From a virus, in the IMG/VR virus record IMGVR_UViG_3300045988_103437: a stretch of 35,262 bases of DNA. The stretch is one strand, 5' to 3'. Numbering within the stretch: the stretch's first letter is position 1; each line of letters starts with the position of its first letter. The translations under genes and the position numbers were made by a program. Below, piece by piece: positions 2,164 to 32,685 of the stretch. The notes beneath the pieces were generated by a model. It worked only from the letters and a program-made list of their open reading frames with translations. It ran no database searches and had not been told where the DNA came from.

Positions 2164-3489
2164 ATGGAAAGAAAATCTAAATTACAGATGATAGCAGTGG
2201 ACAAACTGCACCCACATCCACAGAACCCTCGAAAGGTTATCGGCGATGTGACGGAGCTTGCGGAATCTATCAAGGCGAACGGAATTTTGCAGAACCTTAC
2301 CGTTGTGCCAAACAATGATAACGAGGATGATTTTACTGTTATAATTGGACACCGTAGGCTTGCGGCCGCAAAGCAGGCAGGATTAACTGAACTGCCTTGT
2401 GCAATCGTAGAAATGACGGAGAAAGAACAGCTGTCAACGATGCTCACCGAGAATATGCAGCGGTCAGACTTGACTGTATACGAAGAGGCTAAGGGCTGTC
2501 AGCTCTTGCTTGACCTCGGTGATACGGTTGCAGAGATTGCCGAGAAAACAGGATTTTCAGAAAGCAAAATAAGGCGGAGAGTAAAACTCTGTGAGCTTGA
2601 TGAAGAAGCTTTCAAAGAAAGCCAGCTCAGACAACCCACATTGGCAGACTACGAGCGTCTGAATCAGATTAAGAATATTGATGCAAGAAATGAATTGCTT
2701 AAATCAATCGGAACGAATAATTTCGACAATCTTTTGTATTCTGCCGTGCAAAAGCAGGAGACAGATGAAGAAAAAGAAAAAATTGAAAAGCTCTGTCTTG
2801 AACATGGAATGACTAAAGTGCAGAAATATAACGAAATTCCAGACAATTACAAAGACACAGGAATATTCGCGCTCAAAGATTTGATCGGTAAAGACTTTGC
2901 GGACGGCAGGAACAGATATTTTTATTTTGCTTACGGCTCAACCGTCTACATTTACGCAGAAGCATTGGAAAAGCAGGAAAAGAACGATGCCGAAGAAGAA
3001 AAGCGAAAGCTTGAAGAGCAGAGATGGGATGAGCTTGAAGAACAGACGGAAGAAATAGACGAACGCTGTGAGGCTCTCAGAAGAGACTTTATGCTTGATG
3101 CGAATTTCAATGACAGCAACAAGAAGCAGGAGCTTGTGAAATTTATAGTCGCCCAATTGGCGGCAGGCGTCATTAACAAGGCATACAGATTTGGCGAAGT
3201 AGTCGAGAATCAAGATGATGAAAACACGGACAGCTACATCAACGAACACTGGAGCGATAACAGCGGTAGAATGCTTATGGCGACGGCATACGCTTTGTGC
3301 CAAAGAACTTATGAAAATTTAAGCTTTATTTATGTAGACTATAACAGCAAAACGATCAGCCGAAAAAACAGCCCGGATTTAAACAAATTTTATGCTTTAC
3401 TCTGCAAACTCGGCTATGTGATGAGTGACGAAGAGATACAGCTCCGTGACGGCACACATCCGATTTTTACCTCCGGTGAAGTCAAATGA
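2164..3489 (+). CDS. ParB-like N-terminal nuclease/partition domain protein.
   Basis: ATG 2164 follows a GGAG RBS. The ParB N-domain pattern is IAVDKLHPHPQNPRK...GILQNLTV...IIGHRRLAAAKQAG. The track extension from 2056 runs through the inverted repeats. Confidence 0.8.
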   Translation: MERKSKLQMIAVDKLHPHPQNPRKVIGDVTELAESIKANGILQNLTVVPNNDNEDDFTVIIGHRRLAAAKQAGLTELPCAIVEMTEKEQLSTMLTENMQRSDLTVYEEAKGCQLLLDLGDTVAEIAEKTGFSESKIRRRVKLCELDEEAFKESQLRQPTLADYERLNQIKNIDARNELLKSIGTNNFDNLLYSAVQKQETDEEKEKIEKLCLEHGMTKVQKYNEIPDNYKDTGIFALKDLIGKDFADGRNRYFYFAYGSTVYIYAEALEKQEKNDAEEEKRKLEEQRWDELEEQTEEIDERCEALRRDFMLDANFNDSNKKQELVKFIVAQLAAGVINKAYRFGEVVENQDDENTDSYINEHWSDNSGRMLMATAYALCQRTYENLSFIYVDYNSKTISRKNSPDLNKFYALLCKLGYVMSDEEIQLRDGTHPIFTSGEVK

Positions 3490-3490
3490 A

Positions 3491-3522
3491 AGAACATTTT
3501 GCTGATGTCCGCAAAATGTTCT
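3491..3522 (+). terminator. Perfect 12-bp stem-loop directly after the ParB-like stop. It may be a terminator or an RNA-processing structure.
   Basis: The arms are agaacattttgc and gcaaaatgttct with an 8-nt loop. There is no U-tract, so termination is uncertain. Confidence 0.35.
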
Positions 3523-3544
3523 TGTGCTGAAAATTTAATAAGTT

Positions 3545-3741
3545 AATCACACAACTGCACTTGTGAGATTATATATATCTCATTTTATACCTTCTTTCTT
3601 TAATTGTATTTTCGGGTAGGTGCAGATGCCCGAACAAATTAACCGATAACAAGCTCTGCACAGCTTGTTATATAAAACTCGTTTACTCCTCTTTAAATAA
3701 ATTCTGACATTGAAAGCGGAGCAGGTGCAGATGGTCCGCTT
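3545..3741 (+). ncRNA. Tandem pair of two-hairpin modules (H0-H1 and H2-H3). This is a candidate structured RNA or ssDNA element.
   Basis: H0 is 3545-3570 and H2 is 3646-3671; both have 10-bp stems and a CTGCAC loop. H1 is 3611-3634 and H3 is 3714-3741; both have 6-7-bp stems and loops containing AGGTGCAGATG. The stems differ in sequence while the loops are identical. Confidence 0.6.
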
Positions 3742-3752
3742 AGGTGAAGAAA

Positions 3753-3989
3753 ATGGATGTAAACATTATCACAATAAAATTTAAAGACGGTTCAAGCATA
3801 TATATTGATGATGTTTCTGATTATGCCATAAATAACAATGTTGTCAAAGTTAATAAAAATGGATATAATCAGTTTTTTAATTTCGACGAAGTTAGATATA
3901 TCGGAAGAACATTTGATTTAGAACCTGAAATATACAATGCAATGAAGAGGTGGGACAACTCCAATGTTTCACATTCAAAACTGCTATAA
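3753..3989 (+). CDS. Small hypothetical protein at the start of the AT-rich island.
   Basis: ATG 3753 follows an AGGTGA RBS. The track start, GTG 3744, lies inside that RBS. Confidence 0.55.
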   Translation: MDVNIITIKFKDGSSIYIDDVSDYAINNNVVKVNKNGYNQFFNFDEVRYIGRTFDLEPEIYNAMKRWDNSNVSHSKLL

Positions 3990-4075
3990 GAAGGTATGAA
4001 TCTATGCAAGAAGAGGCGCTTTTACAAATCATTAAAAAACAGCTTAATGAGATCGTAAGGTGGTAGATTTACAAA

Positions 4076-5263
4076 ATGTCGAGGCTAAATAAAACATGGA
4101 CGGCCGATGAAATAGATTATCTTGTATCTGCTTGGGGCAACGTTAATATGGCCACTATAACAAAACACCTTGATAGATCCGAATGTGCGATAAGGCTAAA
4201 AGCCGGTAAGTTAAACTTAGGACCTTTCTTGACTAATGGCTATAGATACATCACAATAAGCAATCTTTATAAACTCATTCGTCCAAACACTTCTGCCAGT
4301 TATCTAAAAACATCGTGGGTAAAAAATAGGAATCTGCCTACTCACAACATATCAAGAAGTTCAAAAACAAATTTCATCGTTGTTTACATAGATGAATTTT
4401 GGATGTGGGCAGAGAAAAATCAATATTTTTTAGATTTTTCGAAACTTGAAAGATATCAATTAGGACCTGAGCCTGATTGGGTAAACCCAAAACGAGAGGC
4501 AGACATATTAAGGAACAGTCTTATTAAAGCAACTCCGTGGACAAACAGAGAAGATAACCTTCTCAAAGAATTGCTTGTAAAGCAAAAGTATGGTTATAAA
4601 GAACTATCACAAATATTGTGCCGTAGCGAAGGAGCTATACAGCGCAGAATTAATGACCTAAACATCAAATACCGACCGATAAAAGCTGATAACCATCAAA
4701 AATGGACTGAATCAGAATACACTTTACTTGGCGAAATGATTAAATGCGGAAGCAAATATGAAGAAATATCCGACAGAATCGGTCGATCAGTTAAGGCTAT
4801 CAGAGGACGTGTGTTCGATAAGTATCTCACGGAAAATCTTGATAAAGTGCGAAATTACATAGGCAACGGAAACTTTGGAGACGGAACGCCTGACAAGCCG
4901 TTAAAATACAAGCGACTTATGTCGAACGAAGAAAAAAACAAAGCTAATCTATTGTTATCAATCATCGCAGGAGATTTACGTTGTGTTGCAAAAATGAATT
5001 CAAATGTTGATGAGGAATACAGTAAATATTGGCAAAAGGATATGTGCTTGAATTGGAGCAATATCAAAGGCTGTATTGCATGCGAAAAAGATTGCGACAG
5101 TTGCACATCATTTAAAAGAATACCCGTACAACATTGTAAGCGTTGTGGAAAAGATTTTTTTGAACGAAAAAGTGCTGATTTTTGTAGCGATTGCAGGTCA
5201 GCTCGCCTATATCAAGCGCGAAAAAAATATGCAATACTGCAACAAAAGCAAAACCGAAAGTAA
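4076..5263 (+). CDS. Protein with three Myb/SANT-like repeats and a Cys-rich C-terminus, likely DNA-binding.
   Basis: Three internal repeats share WT-x2-E-x2-L...RS-x2-AI-x2-R (WTADEIDYL.., WTNREDNLL.., WTESEYTLL..). The C-terminal about 60 aa carries more than 10 Cys (CIACEKDCDSC...CKRCG...CSDC). Confidence 0.65.
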   Translation: MSRLNKTWTADEIDYLVSAWGNVNMATITKHLDRSECAIRLKAGKLNLGPFLTNGYRYITISNLYKLIRPNTSASYLKTSWVKNRNLPTHNISRSSKTNFIVVYIDEFWMWAEKNQYFLDFSKLERYQLGPEPDWVNPKREADILRNSLIKATPWTNREDNLLKELLVKQKYGYKELSQILCRSEGAIQRRINDLNIKYRPIKADNHQKWTESEYTLLGEMIKCGSKYEEISDRIGRSVKAIRGRVFDKYLTENLDKVRNYIGNGNFGDGTPDKPLKYKRLMSNEEKNKANLLLSIIAGDLRCVAKMNSNVDEEYSKYWQKDMCLNWSNIKGCIACEKDCDSCTSFKRIPVQHCKRCGKDFFERKSADFCSDCRSARLYQARKKYAILQQKQNRK

Positions 5264-28144: not shown

Positions 28145-28197
28145 TTAAAACCTAAAGGACATTTTTAATGTCTTGACAAACACATAATTGCAAAAAT

Positions 28198-28236
28198 ATT
28201 CCCCTCACACTGTCATTAAAGATAGGTGAGGGGAAT
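28198..28236. terminator. Bidirectional intrinsic terminator between the convergent endolysin and accessory operon.
   Basis: The 11-bp arms are attcccctcac and gtgaggggaat. An A-run lies on the left and a T-rich run on the right. Confidence 0.75.
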
Positions 28237-28242
28237 TTATTA

Positions 28243-28431
28243 TTATTTATTATTTTCTGTTGCAATCCTTTCAAGCTCGCGGATTATGAGCTTTTCAACA
28301 TATGCGGGTGGTTTCCTCGTGCCGGTTTCCCAATCACCGATAGTTCTCTTTGGGATTTCGAGCAAATCAGACATTTTAGCTTGTGTTAATCCTGCTTTCT
28401 TTCGTGCCTCTTTAATCGTCAATCTTATCAA
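28243..28431 (-). CDS. Small XRE-type HTH regulator, the last gene of the accessory operon. It is a candidate autorepressor, Aca-like protein or antitoxin.
   Basis: The motif is AGLTQAKMSDLLEIPKRTIGDWETGTRKPP. The gene overlaps the upstream gene by 20 nt. Confidence 0.8.
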   Translation of the reverse strand: MIRLTIKEARKKAGLTQAKMSDLLEIPKRTIGDWETGTRKPPAYVEKLIIRELERIATENNK

Positions 28432-28999
28432 CCCCTTTTAAGTAGCCGTCAATCCAAATGACCTTGCCGGTCTGATATCTGCGGAAGTGTCCGCGAACTT
28501 GGAACACACCTTCGGGGCTTCTGTGACGGCCGACTGATGCAGCGTATAGTTGGTTCTGAAAAGGTCTGAACACGATTGTTTTGTTGCCTTTTTGATTCTT
28601 TCCTACAGCGGAAAATTCTCGCTTGTCACGGTCAAGAAAATTTCCATACCATAAGAAAGCGTTCGTGTGAATATACGATATTATCAAGGTCATCATTACA
28701 TCAAGCTGTTCTTGTCCTGTTTCAGTTTCCTTGGCTAGCTTATAGTGCAGTTGAAAATCGTTCGTACCTTCAGGAGTAGGAAAGAACTCGCCTTTAGCAA
28801 ACAGTTTTTTGTTGATTTTGAGAGAAAATCTTCTTTGAAGTTCTTTCGATTCGACATATAGCACGTATTCAGGATTGTCTTTTTTTCGGATTTCACACTT
28901 GTGGAAAAATGGTTCAGCTAAGGAACATTTCAATCTGTCTTTGTCTGCCCACTCTCGGAGATAAGAGTAGGCAGATTCTTCAATATAGATAGTATTCAA
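28412..28999 (-). CDS. Hypothetical 195-aa protein (accessory operon gene 3).
   Basis: The TTG start overlaps the upstream TGA stop (TTGA). No motif was recognised. The C-terminus is basic (RGHFRRYQTGKVIWIDGYLKG). Confidence 0.6.
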   Translation of the reverse strand: MNTIYIEESAYSYLREWADKDRLKCSLAEPFFHKCEIRKKDNPEYVLYVESKELQRRFSLKINKKLFAKGEFFPTPEGTNDFQLHYKLAKETETGQEQLDVMMTLIISYIHTNAFLWYGNFLDRDKREFSAVGKNQKGNKTIVFRPFQNQLYAASVGRHRSPEGVFQVRGHFRRYQTGKVIWIDGYLKGVDKIDD

Positions 29000-29217
29000 G
29001 AGATGATTTCAGCTCCTTTGATGTCAAGAAAAGTTACATTCGGATTTTCTGTTCCTAATGCATATTCGCCGCTGTCATCCGGACACATTACTTCTGCAAG
29101 TCCGATACATGAATTGTGTTCACGATAAGTGCTGACTACTTCATATGTGCCGTTATAATCATCAATCCATGTTCCCTTTTTAAGATTTTTGAAATCGTTA
29201 AATGTTTTGATTTTCAT
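28996..29217 (-). CDS. Small acidic hypothetical protein of 73 aa (accessory operon gene 2).
   Basis: The ATG at 29217 lies 8 nt after AGGAG. The track ORF extends to 29253 and overlaps gene 1. Confidence 0.6.
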   Translation of the reverse strand: MKIKTFNDFKNLKKGTWIDDYNGTYEVVSTYREHNSCIGLAEVMCPDDSGEYALGTENPNVTFLDIKGAEIIS

Positions 29218-29234
29218 AGTATTTACTCCTTTGC

Positions 29235-29531
29235 TTAAACATAGTCTGACCAATGGTCTTTGAAGAGCTCAACTGCTCTGTCGTAATCATCTGTATAGAT
29301 TACTCGATTATCTCCATGTTCTGCTGGGTCTTCTTCAATAAGCACGGATTTGGGAACCCACATCGTTTTACGCTGATAACAACCAACATTAAGCATTGCA
29401 TATACGGCTTTTTCTGTTTCTTTCAGGATTGCGAAAACATCACACATTGTGATGTTCTTGCCAAGCTCGTTCGCTACCTTATTAGCAAACCAATCTTTCA
29501 CCGTTAAAAACTTATCGCCTGTTCTTGTCAT
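29235..29531 (-). CDS. Small acidic hypothetical protein of 98 aa (accessory operon gene 1).
   Basis: It is the first ORF downstream of the palindrome-containing promoter. Confidence 0.6.
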   Translation of the reverse strand: MTRTGDKFLTVKDWFANKVANELGKNITMCDVFAILKETEKAVYAMLNVGCYQRKTMWVPKSVLIEEDPAEHGDNRVIYTDDYDRAVELFKDHWSDYV

Positions 29532-29562
29532 TTGTGATTTCCCTTTCCTTTATCTTGATTAC

Positions 29563-29591
29563 ATCATATCACGCATTGCGTGATATGTCAA
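29563..29591 (-). promoter_or_regulatory. Promoter of the accessory operon with an embedded perfect palindromic operator.
   Basis: On the minus strand this reads TTGACA (29586-29591), a 17-nt spacer, then TATGAT (29563-29568). The palindrome catatcacgca-t-tgcgtgatatg (29565-29587) fills the spacer. Confidence 0.7.
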
Positions 29592-29645
29592 GCGTTTTTT
29601 TAAAATATTTTTAGAAAAAGTAAATATTTTTTAATCGCTTCAATT

Positions 29646-29664
29646 ACTACAGATTTACTACAGA
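29646..29664 (+). repeat. Arm-type integrase binding sites on the P arm: two ACTACAGA copies 11 bp apart.
   Basis: ACTACAGA occurs at 29646-29653 and 29657-29664. The same tandem pair occurs at 29886-29904. Confidence 0.6.
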
Positions 29665-29720
29665 CACAGTTCGAAAAGTCCGAAAGTGCCGATAAACACT
29701 GACTTTTTCAAAACAAACCG

Positions 29721-29770
29721 CATGACTGTTAATCATGATGTCACTGGTTCGAGCCCAGTTGGGGGAGCCA
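29721..29770 (+). other. attP core: the 3' portion of a tRNA-Asn(GUU) gene, from the anticodon arm to CCA.
   Basis: Anticodon arm catga/ctGTTaa/tcatg, variable loop atgtc, T-arm actgg/ttcgagc/ccagt, acceptor tggggga, then g and cca. No D-arm or 5' acceptor strand lies upstream. Confidence 0.8.
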
Positions 29771-29778
29771 CGAGAGAA

Positions 29779-29819
29779 GTCAGTAATTAAGCCAAAAACG
29801 GCTTGTTTACTGGCTTTTT
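29779..29819 (+). terminator. Intrinsic terminator downstream of the tRNA fragment.
   Basis: A long imperfect stem spans 29779-29793 and 29800-29814. Its two G-U pairs are valid only in the + transcript, and TTTTT follows. Confidence 0.65.
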
Positions 29820-29885
29820 GCTTTGTTTATAATATTTTCGATTTTCAAAATTATTCACTTCTTTTTATGCCTTTTAATCTCTTAT

Positions 29886-29904
29886 ACTACAGATAAACTA
29901 CAGA
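29886..29904 (+). repeat. Arm-type integrase binding sites on the P' arm: two ACTACAGA copies 11 bp apart.
   Basis: ACTACAGA occurs at 29886-29893 and 29897-29904. Confidence 0.6.
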
Positions 29905-29949: not shown

Positions 29950-31188
29950 TTACGCCAATAATTTGATCGCATTGTAAAGAGTGTCAACCTCTTGGATGAT
30001 GTAGTGGTCAATATCAACTTTGTAATCTGTATGCCCCATGAGAGCAATGATGTCCTCTTCTCGTGCGCCTGCCGCTGACATGCGGGTCGAAAATGTTCGA
30101 CGACAGGAGTGCGGAGTGAACTCATCACCCAAGCCGAGAGCCTGCATCGCCGGGCGAAAACCGTATTTCAAGAAATAATCCTTGTTCATCGCTTTGCCAA
30201 ACTCTGAACCTTCGTGTGTTCGACAGAAGATTGTTTCACCTTTGTGATTTATACAGTTCTCAACCAATTTTAAAATTTTAGGGTGGATAGGTACAACACG
30301 ATTTTTGCCGGCATCTGACTTTATGCCTGCGATAAAGTAAGGTATTCCTTGCTCACTTACATGGTATTGGTCAGTTGTAAGTGACAAAAATTCGCTCACT
30401 CTAAAATTGAGGTAGCACATTATATAAACATAATCGGCATAAGGTACTCTGCCTATGTTTTGTCGTATTAGCTCAAGCTGCACATCGGTAAAGCGTGTAG
30501 CGTTTACCTCTTCGGGTTCGGGTAGTTCTATAAATGTGCCGTAGTCTTTATTTACAATATCTTCTTTCATTGCAAAATCGTAAAGACTTGTGACGAAGCA
30601 TTTAATCTTATGTAGCGCCGAGTAGCCTAAGCCTTGGCAGATTTTCGGTGTGTTCGTGACCTTGTAAGTACCTTTGCCGTTTGGTGAAAGATATTTCAGT
30701 TTTCCGCCTGCGCCGACCTCGTGATGTGGATTTTCGTAATAATCCACGATGTACTGATAGTCTGATGTGCGCAAATCCCTAAATTTACGCTTGTACAAGG
30801 GCTTTAGCTTGATATAAGCGCTTGCGTAGTTGCTTTTTACGCTGTCACCAAGTTTTTTATATGCTTTAGTTTTTACCCATTTATCGTGTAATTGCTCAAG
30901 TGTCATATTAAAGCCATTGACGGGATTGTACTCATAATCTTTGAGTGCGTTTTCTGCCTCTCGCTTTGTGGCGAAAGTTCCCAAATAAACTTGTTTCCCT
31001 GTGACAGAGCTTGCAGCGGCATACGGTTTTGATTTGCTGTCTTTGCGAATGTAAATGCTTCCTGTACCTTTTGTTCTGCGCCTGTTTTTCGGCTTGTCAG
31101 ATGATTGATTTTTACCGCAGTAAGGACAATACGCAAAATTGTCCTGCAATTCTCGGTTACACCGTCGGTTTATACATTTTTTCATCAT
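29950..31188 (-). CDS. int: Tyrosine integrase with an N-terminal zinc ribbon and an AP2-like arm-binding domain.
   Basis: The ATG at 31188 follows AAGGAG. Motifs are CINRRC...CPYCG, GSIYIRKD...YLGTFATKREAENAL, and the catalytic HSCRRTFSTRM...LMGHTDYKVDIDHY. The track extension to 31257 runs into the promoter. Confidence 0.9.
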   Translation of the reverse strand: MMKKCINRRCNRELQDNFAYCPYCGKNQSSDKPKNRRRTKGTGSIYIRKDSKSKPYAAASSVTGKQVYLGTFATKREAENALKDYEYNPVNGFNMTLEQLHDKWVKTKAYKKLGDSVKSNYASAYIKLKPLYKRKFRDLRTSDYQYIVDYYENPHHEVGAGGKLKYLSPNGKGTYKVTNTPKICQGLGYSALHKIKCFVTSLYDFAMKEDIVNKDYGTFIELPEPEEVNATRFTDVQLELIRQNIGRVPYADYVYIMCYLNFRVSEFLSLTTDQYHVSEQGIPYFIAGIKSDAGKNRVVPIHPKILKLVENCINHKGETIFCRTHEGSEFGKAMNKDYFLKYGFRPAMQALGLGDEFTPHSCRRTFSTRMSAAGAREEDIIALMGHTDYKVDIDHYIIQEVDTLYNAIKLLA

Positions 31189-31228
31189 TTTGCTCCTTAA
31201 AAAAGGGTGCAAAAATCCCCTGCAAAAT

Positions 31229-31258
31229 ATTGTAATTTTCGCAGGGGTGTGGTACAAT
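31229..31258. promoter_or_regulatory. Overlapping face-to-face promoters: minus-strand P(int) and a + strand promoter.
   Basis: On the + strand: TTGTAA (31230-35), 17 nt, TACAAT (31253-58). On the - strand: TTGTAC (31252-57), 17 nt, TACAAT (31229-34). The inverted repeat cccctgc/gcagggg (31217-23 and 31241-47) overlaps them. Confidence 0.5.
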
Positions 31259-31346: not shown

Positions 31347-32621
31347 TTATTTTACTTTCTTGCTGACAAGGTTCATTTTAACGTCATTATCATAGGTATC
31401 TGTATCGAAATATATTAAATCAGCTCCTACGGTTGATGGATTGAAGTTTTTACAATCTTTCACACTGACTTCAATCATGCCCTCGCTGTGTGCTGAAATC
31501 GGAGCGCTACAGACTAACTTGTTGTAGCTTCTTCCGTCTAAGATGACGGTGTCGGCTTGTACGGTTATAGATTTATCCATTTTATTTTTTATATAAAAAT
31601 GAACATCAACTTCTTCATCCGAATAAGGAGCCTGCTCCGTATCGCTGTAATAAACGGCTATGTCGCTATCTGAATAAAGCTCGGTTAAAGTATCTTTAAA
31701 CTCTGTAGGTTTTTCGGTAGGCGGTTCTGTTTCGGGTTCAGTAGCTTTTTCTGCTGAATCTTCTTCAGGTGAACGAACATCTTTTGAAGAATATGTTATT
31801 ATAGAATTAACAATGATGTCTTCATAAAAATCAAATTCTTCAGATTGCTCATCGCCTTCGGTTGTGAAAAGCATACAACACAAATAATTCTTCGTCACCC
31901 ACACATACATTGTGCCGTAATACTTATCTCCGGATAATTCCAAATTTGCTATTACACGATAAGCGAGAAAGTCATCTATATGAGTTGTAGTTCTGCTTAT
32001 TTCTTCAAAGTCATCAAACGAATTTGCAAAGCCATCAAGAAAGCTGTCTACATAGCCTGAGGTAAATTGAGATGGTGAAATATTCGATTGAGATGAACTT
32101 ATATACAGCCTGTTTCCGTCAGGATCGTAAAAATAATGGTAACCGTCATGAGCTTTATGCGTCCACTCTTTAGGAATATCAATAGAAAAAGGAGTTATAT
32201 CATACCACTCAAACAAATCGGTTTCTGAGGTATCGTTAGAGGTTTGATTGGTAGAAGTTGTTACCGGTTCTTGAATATCAGGTTGGTTGCTACATTGCGA
32301 AATGGCAGTTACCGCAGTGGTGGTCAATATCAAAGCTATCAGCAAAGCAATGTAAAAATGTGGAGTGCGATATATAGGCTTTTTTTCAGTCGTTTTTTCA
32401 GCTTCTCCCGTAGGGCTGAATTTGTTTTTTTGATATGTATGGCATATCGGGCAAAATACTGAATTATTCGGTATGATGTTACCGCAACTTTCACACTTGC
32501 AGGGTTCTGTGTTTTTAGATTCGTCGTCTTTAAACAGAGCAACCTGTTCAATCTTCGCTCCGCATTCGTTACAGAACTTTGCACCGACAGGAACCTCAGA
32601 ACCGCATTTTTGACATTTCAT
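31347..32621 (-). CDS. Membrane-anchored protein with two N-terminal zinc ribbons, one transmembrane helix and a large extracytoplasmic region. It is probably expressed from the prophage.
   Basis: Motifs are CQKCG..CNECG and CESCG..CPIC, with the transmembrane helix HFYIALLIALILTTTAVTAI. A GAGGAGGG RBS precedes the start. It is on the same strand as the repressor operon. Confidence 0.75.
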   Translation of the reverse strand: MKCQKCGSEVPVGAKFCNECGAKIEQVALFKDDESKNTEPCKCESCGNIIPNNSVFCPICHTYQKNKFSPTGEAEKTTEKKPIYRTPHFYIALLIALILTTTAVTAISQCSNQPDIQEPVTTSTNQTSNDTSETDLFEWYDITPFSIDIPKEWTHKAHDGYHYFYDPDGNRLYISSSQSNISPSQFTSGYVDSFLDGFANSFDDFEEISRTTTHIDDFLAYRVIANLELSGDKYYGTMYVWVTKNYLCCMLFTTEGDEQSEEFDFYEDIIVNSIITYSSKDVRSPEEDSAEKATEPETEPPTEKPTEFKDTLTELYSDSDIAVYYSDTEQAPYSDEEVDVHFYIKNKMDKSITVQADTVILDGRSYNKLVCSAPISAHSEGMIEVSVKDCKNFNPSTVGADLIYFDTDTYDNDVKMNLVSKKVK

Positions 32622-32640: not shown

Positions 32641-32667
32641 GATATATATATTGACAATATATATATC
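32641..32667. promoter_or_regulatory. Perfect 13-bp-arm palindrome that overlaps a + strand TTGACA/TAAAAT promoter.
   Basis: The palindrome is gatatatatattg-a-caatatatatatc. The promoter is TTGACA 32651-32656, 17 nt, TAAAAT 32674-32679. Confidence 0.55.
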
Positions 32668-32685
32668 ATGTATTAAAATAATATT

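Follow-up and report, generated by a model that had tools for sequence, protein, structure and literature searches.

A putatively self-repressed accessory cassette with the layout of an anti-defence operon in phages of gut Clostridia

Introduction

What is the role of a small operon that lies between the lysis genes and the attachment site of a phage, is read against the late genes and ends in a gene for its own putative regulator? The question is raised by positions 28243-29591 of the IMG/VR virus record IMGVR_UViG_3300045988_103437, a stretch of 35,262 nucleotides to which we refer, at its full length, as the window. An earlier reading of this DNA, made from the letters alone and referred to here as the original prediction, proposed an autoregulated accessory operon of four genes, with either the architecture of an anti-CRISPR (acr) operon under an anti-CRISPR-associated (aca) regulator or that of a toxin-antitoxin pair. 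We describe here a computational analysis of the operon and of its relatives in other phages and in metagenomes. The operon is best filed as a putatively self-repressed accessory cassette that is built like an anti-defence operon, with a new pairing of helix-turn-helix (HTH) regulator and operator and with cargo genes that are all unannotated.

Results

A palindrome-filled promoter ahead of four genes

The operon and its control elements comprise the following features.

29563-29591, minus strand: sigma-70-type promoter (TTGACA at 29591-29586, a 17-nt spacer and a TG-extended TATGAT at 29568-29563)
29565-29587, no strand assigned: putative operator, a perfect 11+1+11 palindrome, CATATCACGCA-A-TGCGTGATATG, that fills the promoter spacer
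29235-29531, minus strand: g1, a 98-residue acidic cargo protein (phrog_12732; isoelectric point 5.1, net charge -4)
28996-29217, minus strand: g2, a 73-residue acidic cargo protein (isoelectric point 4.6, net charge -5)
28412-28999, minus strand: g3, a 195-residue basic protein (phrog_10678; TTG start, isoelectric point 9.2)
28243-28431, minus strand: g4, an XRE-type HTH protein of 59-62 residues and the proposed autorepressor (Pfam HTH_3, E=9e-10)
28189-28236, minus strand: intrinsic terminator (a hairpin with a 13-bp stem at 28198-28236, then a U-run)

The promoter matches the consensus at 11 of 12 positions, and a TG extension precedes the -10 hexamer. Besides occupying the spacer, the palindrome extends into both hexamers, taking in the final 2 nt of the -35 and the initial 4 nt of the -10 element. 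A shuffled window is expected to contain 0.02 perfect palindromes whose arms are at least 11 nt long, and the 21-nt core of the operator occurs once in the window even when three mismatches are allowed, and in none of 100 shuffles.

The genes are closely packed. A gap of 17 nt, carrying an AAAGGAG ribosome-binding site, separates g1 from g2, which do not overlap; g2 and g3 share a TTGA overlap, and g3 and g4 overlap by 20 nt if g4 is read from its first start, or by 11 nt if it begins at its second TTG (28422). We consider the second TTG the more likely start: it is preceded by AAAGGGG at a distance of 9 nt, and the 59-residue protein that it yields begins MTIKEAR, in keeping with the MTI(K/R)E at the start of homologues. 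The terminator hairpin escaped a simple terminator scan; its predicted free energy is -22.4 kcal/mol (z -4.85) and none of 200 shuffles folds as well.

Every element that the original prediction described (the promoter, the palindrome in its spacer, four genes for 98, 73, 195 and 62 residues with acidic g1 and g2 and a g3 with a basic C-terminus, the terminal XRE HTH, and the position between the lysis cassette and attP opposite to the late genes) was found where it had been placed, so that the description is correct apart from small details. These concern its claim that the four genes are translationally coupled: the TTGA overlap of g2 and g3 stands, whereas g1 and g2 are separate and the g3/g4 overlap is probably the shorter of the two.

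A constant regulator with exchangeable cargo

Copies of the operon were collected by searching IMG/VR for exact copies of the operator (14 contigs), by an operator scan of metagenomes (38 matches, 24 of which stand in a TTGAC-palindrome-TA(T/G)AAT context), by a lookup of g3 at 90% identity in Logan contigs, and by a scan with the g3 protein (53 IMG/VR loci). Removal of identical copies left 53 cassettes, 39 of which are complete through the HTH gene. All 39 have a g4-type HTH as the terminal gene. Between the promoter and g3 or g4 there are about 17 unannotated cargo families in 18 architectures. The first cargo position is filled by g1 (present in 21 of the 39) or, where other families take its place, by a protein of 236, 189 or 116 residues; the position just before g3 is filled by g2, by a protein of 71, 91 or 97 residues, or by a 72-residue gene together with g2. 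The sole difference between the g1-g2 version in the window and that of L025 and L030 is that the 72-residue gene is missing from the window. Intact g3 is found in 32 of the complete cassettes and is absent from the other seven (L024, L095, L102, L105, L112, L115 and L120), and the HTH gene is retained where g3 is deleted (L115 and L102), truncated (L095) or, as in L077-L083, reduced to its last 35 codons. Across these cassettes g3 is a frequent but dispensable member of the cassette.

Loci picked by similarity of the g3 protein, with enough upstream DNA, provide an unbiased test of the operator, and the promoter/operator is present in 30 of 30 of them; the five g3-similarity loci in which it was not found are all truncated where their contigs end. 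Column identity averages 0.93 across the 29-nt promoter/operator, and 0.70 and 0.76 across the 60 nt upstream and downstream of it, respectively. The cassette is carried by two phage backbones, one with the lysis/attP slot seen in the window and in L025, L027, L018 and L024, and one in which it lies between the small terminase gene (terS) and a Rep gene, in phages whose portal is P22-like (L012-L017 among them). Comparison of these loci identifies the operon in the window as a copy of a mobile cassette whose promoter/operator and HTH are constant, whose cargo is variable and whose carriers are two unrelated phage backbones.

A ribosome-binding-site linker, AAAGGAG-AAAACAYT-ATG, is nearly identical before each cargo gene, even where the genes that follow it are unrelated, and it could plausibly serve as a recombination or micro-homology junction for gene exchange. 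We note that, throughout L012-L119, the linker lies in the 20 nt that precede the start codon of each cargo gene, and that it lies at 29218-29235 in the window.

The operator changes with the HTH

Natural variants of the operator retain the half-site TATCAC-N-CA / TG-N-GTGATA, and the N positions vary and are often non-complementary between the two arms. Retention of the half-site together with non-complementary N positions predicts a site for a dimeric protein and not a hairpin, and we have therefore rejected the possibility that the palindrome functions as an RNA or DNA hairpin.

The sequence of the site follows the type of HTH. Proteins of the IPKRTIGDWE type pair with CACG-CAATG-CGTG, and those of the IPYRTVQDW type with CACG-AAATC-CGTG or CACG-CAAAG-CGTG. 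At loci of the latter type (L067, L077-L083 and L084) the promoter reads TTGACA-ACACGAAATCCGTGT or TTGACAA-ACACGCAAAGCGTGT, with the CACG-N5-CGTG core retained and the flanks different. A further departure is seen in L085 (2890-2920), where the promoter spacer holds a different 20-bp perfect palindrome, ATACTACTATATAGTAGTAT, alongside a g3 homologue of 42% identity, and where the XRE HTH is replaced by a 63-residue MerR/excisionase-like HTH encoded just before g3. All of the regulator-specific palindromes lie directly 3' of the TTGACA -35 hexamer, within the spacer or running through it. As read from these pairings, the operator changes together with the HTH, and the same design recurs with regulator and site swapped.

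HTH proteins that are only 43% identical to g4, and that keep the recognition helix IP(K/I)RT(I/L)xDWE, adjoin the operator of g4 in three ways: their gene is terminal, or comes first and encodes a fused acidic domain as well (L024), or lies immediately upstream of the promoter (L021). The fusion gene of L024 (9952-10410) is the only one behind its promoter/operator, which is that of the window, and it lies on a 15.6-kb contig, flanked by integrase and lysis genes. Its product, of 129 residues, joins an N-terminal g4-like HTH (43% identity) to an acidic C-terminal domain. We infer that g4 binds the palindrome and represses the operon.

Two loci, L117 and L127, have two copies of the operator on the same strand, 560 nt apart, which suggests that one regulator may control two adjacent promoters there. 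In L067 (5107-5820) and L080 (4703-5419) an orphan gene that is DNA methyltransferase-like, by sequence motifs only, lies immediately downstream of a cassette of the second HTH type, on the opposite strand and before the lysis genes.

The cargo proteins and the regulator

By homologue searches g1, g2 and g3 each belong to a real family. There are 142 homologues of g1 of about 100 residues, 63 of g2 of about 74 residues, and 38 close homologues of g3, for which a profile search reaches 276 representative clusters (E<=1e-3), nearly all of 190-220 residues. The g3-bearing prophages have Clostridia as hosts (Acutalibacteraceae, Ruminococcus, Anaeromassilibacillus and Eubacterium). The g3 family is a sizeable one in phages of Firmicutes, ranging from prophages of Oscillospirales to lytic Bacillus myoviruses, and it has no solved structural relative.

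The original prediction held that the cargo might be new, and the database searches agree. Neither g1, g2 nor g3 has a named match in Pfam, NCBIfam or PADLOC, the PHROGs to which g1 and g3 belong are families of unknown function, and PDB sequence searches with g1, g2 and a profile of g3 were all negative. With the defence models of PADLOC-DB 2.0, g1-g3 are unmatched and g4 gives only generic HTH matches. More than 20 further cargo or neighbour proteins, searched against Pfam, PHROGs and NCBIfam, gave only PHROGs of unknown function, one HTH_26 and one weak metallopeptidase-like match. The last of these is to a 133-residue cargo protein of L114 (464-865 in the oriented cassette), which has an HEMRH motif and a weak, below-cut-off match to the putative metallopeptidase family DUF6782 (E=2.5e-5); it is the sole cargo protein with an enzyme-like signature.

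All of the +6 net charge of g3 lies in residues 136-195. Across 95 diverse relatives the only invariant residues are V168-R169-G170-H171 (VRGH), with W17, P162, F166, R173, G178, W182, K188 and G189 nearly invariant. A Pfam scan of these 95 members gave nothing meaningful, two unrelated families being matched by one member each (E=0.004 and 0.007). An AlphaFold2 model built with a deeper alignment has a predicted local distance difference test score of 84.7 and a predicted template-modelling (TM) score of 0.77. Foldseek comparison of two AlphaFold2 models with the PDB found no match at E<=1e-3, and TM-scores were at most 0.29; fold matches to Brix and GNAT proteins are at this noise level and were rejected. 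Matches in BFVD are all uncharacterised phage proteins. The basic, aromatic-rich VRGH region probably enables g3 to bind nucleic acid or a nucleotide.

The similarity of the regulator g4 to HTH models of MqsA- and Y4mF-type antitoxins (TIGR03830, 34 bits against a cut-off of 61.8) and to generic XRE structures is only below threshold.

Relatives of the cargo in other phages

The genome ends of phi29 carry early genes. A homologue of g2 with about 70% identity (L007, 173-394) lies at the end of a contig of about 15 kb with phi29-like structural genes, and about 10 further g2 homologues are on contigs of 14.9-15.9 kb. Homologues of g1 are found among small genes beside replication genes, in the early/replication region of a 56-kb phage, and those of g3 in strings of small early genes and among DNA-metabolism genes. 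In L009 a g1 homologue is neighboured by an open reading frame (ORF) of 195 residues, which on inspection proved unrelated to g3.

Among 15 independent contexts of diverged g3, an HTH gene lies within one gene in five (L001/L068, L067, L084, L085/L086 and L088); it is upstream or downstream of g3 and of two types. The other ten have no HTH neighbour (L005, L006, L075/L076, L087, L089, FP_Brigit gp91, Bc431v3 orf182 and L132-L134). The g3 homologues of L075/L076 are solitary, and orf182 of Bacillus phage Bc431v3 is monocistronic, with its own annotated promoter and with a terminator upstream. Bc431v3 and its relatives PBC2, Deep Blue and BCP78 are members of the Bastillevirinae, large myoviruses that we take to be strictly lytic.

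One of these contexts includes an ORF with similarity to part of a Cas protein. In L006 a phage ORF of 134 residues (3840-4244) matches only the C-terminal 115 positions of Cas8c, covering positions 444-554 of the 559 in Pfam Cas_Csd1 (E=1.7e-11, 43.9 bits against a curated cut-off of 27). It lies one gene away from a g3 homologue of 36% identity (3040-3645), in an integrase/lysis accessory slot, and by analogy we regard it as a candidate anti-CRISPR of Cas origin that would act on type I-C systems.

The setting in the window

On the plus strand, genes for a holin (Phage_holin_4_1, PF05105) and an endolysin (Amidase_2, PF01510) converge on the operon, and the terminator stands tail-to-tail with the endolysin gene. 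An integrase gene (PF00589) lies at 29950-31257, and between it and the promoter there is a partial tRNA match at 29704-29767 (26 bits). By eye this match continues to a CCA end near 29786 and resembles the 3' part of tRNA-Asn (GTT); ARAGORN found no complete tRNA. With its own promoter and terminator, between the amidase endolysin gene and attP/integrase, the operon has the composition and the site of a moron.

No GenBank phage was matched by Megablast with 25 kb of the window, and a distant DNA search with the operon found similarity only in Streptococcus phages, over about 100 nt around attP and the tRNA match. Direct repeats of the form TACTACAGAT(T/A)(T/A)ACTACAGA, at 29645-29664 and 29885-29904, flank the tRNA-like attP core and may be arm-type binding sites of the integrase. 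A second long perfect palindrome, which is AT-rich (GATATATATATTG-T-CAATATATATATC, 32642-32668), is situated beside the integrase gene and precedes, by about 20 nt, the ribosome-binding site for the gene of a 424-residue zinc-ribbon membrane protein (31347-32621, minus strand); it may be an operator of the lysogeny module.

Discussion

The organization of the cassette suggests a simple mode of operation. The strong host-type promoter would fire once naked phage DNA is present, whether at infection or at induction, and would drive a burst of synthesis of the cargo (in this case g1, g2 and g3) and of the small HTH protein g4. A g4 dimer would then bind the palindrome in the spacer between the -35 and -10 hexamers, block RNA polymerase and reduce the operon to a low level of expression, which would also be that of the prophage state. 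The cargo slot would be open, with phages exchanging genes at the conserved ribosome-binding-site linkers, and the cargo proteins would most likely be early inhibitors of host functions, probably of defence systems. We hold the regulatory part alone, that is, Aca-like regulation, with high confidence; the full statement, in which this regulation is coupled to early inhibition of host or defence functions, we regard as evenly poised between right and wrong. The early timing of expression is inferred, and so, as none of the cargo matches a known anti-defence family, is any anti-defence activity.

The closest parallel is with acr-aca operons. Aca proteins are small HTH proteins that are encoded last and bind inverted repeats in acr promoters (PMC9410881), and one of them, Aca10, has 65 residues and binds a 19-bp palindrome, ATACGCTCATTGAGCGTAT (PMC9410881); operons under Aca control contain many unannotated putative anti-defence genes (PMC13551039). 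The cassette is similar in that an inverted repeat in a strong promoter is followed by small, often acidic, unannotated genes and lastly by an HTH of about 60-65 residues, in that regulator and site are constant as the upstream genes vary between mobile elements, and in that its 21-bp site resembles the site of Aca10 in size and symmetry. It differs in that g4 has no significant similarity to Aca proteins of solved structure, that no cargo protein is a known anti-CRISPR (Acr), that the basic, 195-residue g3 is a near-constant companion of the HTH, and that the hosts are gut Clostridia, with operator binding and repression being predicted. To our knowledge, few Acr or Aca families have been described for gut Clostridia. 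The acr-aca-like architecture of the original prediction holds for regulation and evolution, with one HTH/operator pair constant across some 17 families, and does not extend to the identity of the cargo.

Two associations, by analogy with known inhibitors, point to counter-defence. The first is the fusion in L024 of a g4-like HTH to an acidic domain, which resembles self-repressing HTH-Acr fusions (AcrIIA1 and AcrIIA13-15) and in particular follows the two-domain logic of AcrIIA15 (PMC10901769); unlike these, the HTH of the window is a separate gene, and the C-terminal domain in L024 has no detected similarity to an Acr. The second is the Cas8c-like ORF of L006. An inhibitor of type I-B interference from Listeria, AcrIB4, is homologous to the final 90 residues of Cas8b (bioRxiv 10.1101/2023.06.24.545427), and the L006 ORF likewise matches only the C-terminal part of Cas8c (Csd1), although it lies outside the window, concerns subtype I-C rather than I-B, and bears on the cassette by association only.

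Several observations weigh against an anti-defence function. No known anti-CRISPR or anti-defence family was found among the cargo in Pfam, NCBIfam or the PDB, and PHROGs gave no function, no dedicated anti-defence library having been searched. Similarity of g4 to Aca10 (7XI5) is at noise level (E=0.09), the comparison having been with Aca proteins of solved structure only, and no entry named Aca1 or Aca2 is among its structure matches. At 195 residues, and basic, g3 is larger than most Acr proteins. The association with a Cas8c fragment is a single locus (L006), and there it is under a different promoter. Autorepression would also suit genes expressed from a prophage, so that the regulation alone does not indicate anti-defence. 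Finally, most of the cassettes are close relatives (g3 identity of at least 87%), and part of the constancy reflects recent common descent.

There are several other explanations to consider. The one that survives best, although we consider it unlikely, is that the cassette is a generic early module for host takeover or regulation (of transcription, replication or metabolism) unrelated to immunity, with g3 as a nucleic-acid-binding accessory factor. The basic C-terminus of g3 with its invariant Arg and His and its aromatic residues, the company that g3 homologues keep with DNA-metabolism and small early genes, and the lack of an anti-defence signature in any cargo protein are all consistent with this. 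However, the cargo is dispensable and combinatorially replaced, which argues against a core takeover function, a Cas8c fragment lies near a g3 homologue, and the regulatory design is that described for anti-defence operons (PMC13551039, PMC9410881).

A second explanation is that the operon is a moron for lysogenic conversion, expressed from the prophage and providing superinfection exclusion or a new defence system, with g4 setting a steady low level of expression. The slot between lysis genes and attP is the classic one, and like the morons of lambdoid phages the operon is an independent promoter-gene-terminator unit that is read against the late operon, in which negative autoregulation would give stable, low-level expression. 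Unlike them it has its own repressor and operator as well as exchangeable genes, and it occupies the terS/Rep slot in another phage lineage. PADLOC has no match for g1-g3, and relatives of these genes occur in early or terminal regions of phages, including contigs with phi29-like structural genes and the strictly lytic Bastillevirinae, for which there is no lysogen to be protected; we would also expect rapid shuffling of small acidic proteins to be more typical of counter-defence than of defence genes. We therefore regard a lysogenic-conversion role as improbable.

The original prediction had alternatively seen in g3 and g4 a toxin-antitoxin or abortive-infection layout of the HigBA/MqsRA kind. 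As we would put this rival, they form a toxin-first type II pair, with g3 a new toxin, g4 its HTH antitoxin and autorepressor, and g1 and g2 passengers. The layout is similar in that a larger gene precedes a small XRE HTH gene that overlaps it (here by 11-20 nt), the weak resemblance of g4 to MqsA- and Y4mF-type antitoxins fits an antitoxin, promoter palindromes are also typical of antitoxin autoregulation, and a g3 homologue with an overlapping HTH directly after it recurs at 54% (L067) and 46% (L084) identity. But g3 is unrelated to RelE, HigB and MqsR and unlike any toxin family or fold (Pfam, NCBIfam, PADLOC and the PDB fold search), other genes stand between the promoter and g3, and the two partners each occur alone. 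No HTH lies within one gene of g3 in 10 of 15 diverged contexts, among them the single gene of the strictly lytic Bc431v3; HTH and operator persist without an intact g3 in 7 of 39 complete cassettes, and with no more than a remnant of g3 in L077-L083; and where g3 does have an HTH partner, its side and type vary. With strict pairing absent, and with no toxin family or fold, this part of the original prediction is not upheld, and we consider a toxin-antitoxin pair very improbable. The controller (C-protein) operon of a restriction-modification system was also considered and rejected, as the operon contains neither a restriction nor a methylase gene and has its HTH gene in the last position, not the first.

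A more far-reaching version of the anti-defence interpretation, which we offer tentatively as possible though doubtful, is that the cassette is a portable anti-defence toolbox, in which several of the approximately 17 families would inhibit CRISPR systems (I-B and I-C) or other defences of Clostridia, g3 would represent a new class of counter-defence protein (e.g. a sponge for nucleotide signals or nucleic acids), and g4 a new Aca family.

Hardly any exploration has been made of the anti-defence genes in phages of gut Clostridia (Oscillospirales, Ruminococcus and relatives), and in other bacteria such genes have been found mainly by way of known anti-CRISPR-associated regulators. If our interpretation is correct, the HTH and its 21-bp site would provide an anchor that can be searched for by sequence and that already marks about 17 candidate families, and the proteins of the g3 type, widespread in phages and structurally without a solved relative, would have a role that can be tested. 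The conserved ribosome-binding-site linkers would further suggest how phages swap single genes within such cassettes. Even if the anti-defence interpretation is wrong, the cassette would still be a well-defined example of a mobile, self-regulated moron.

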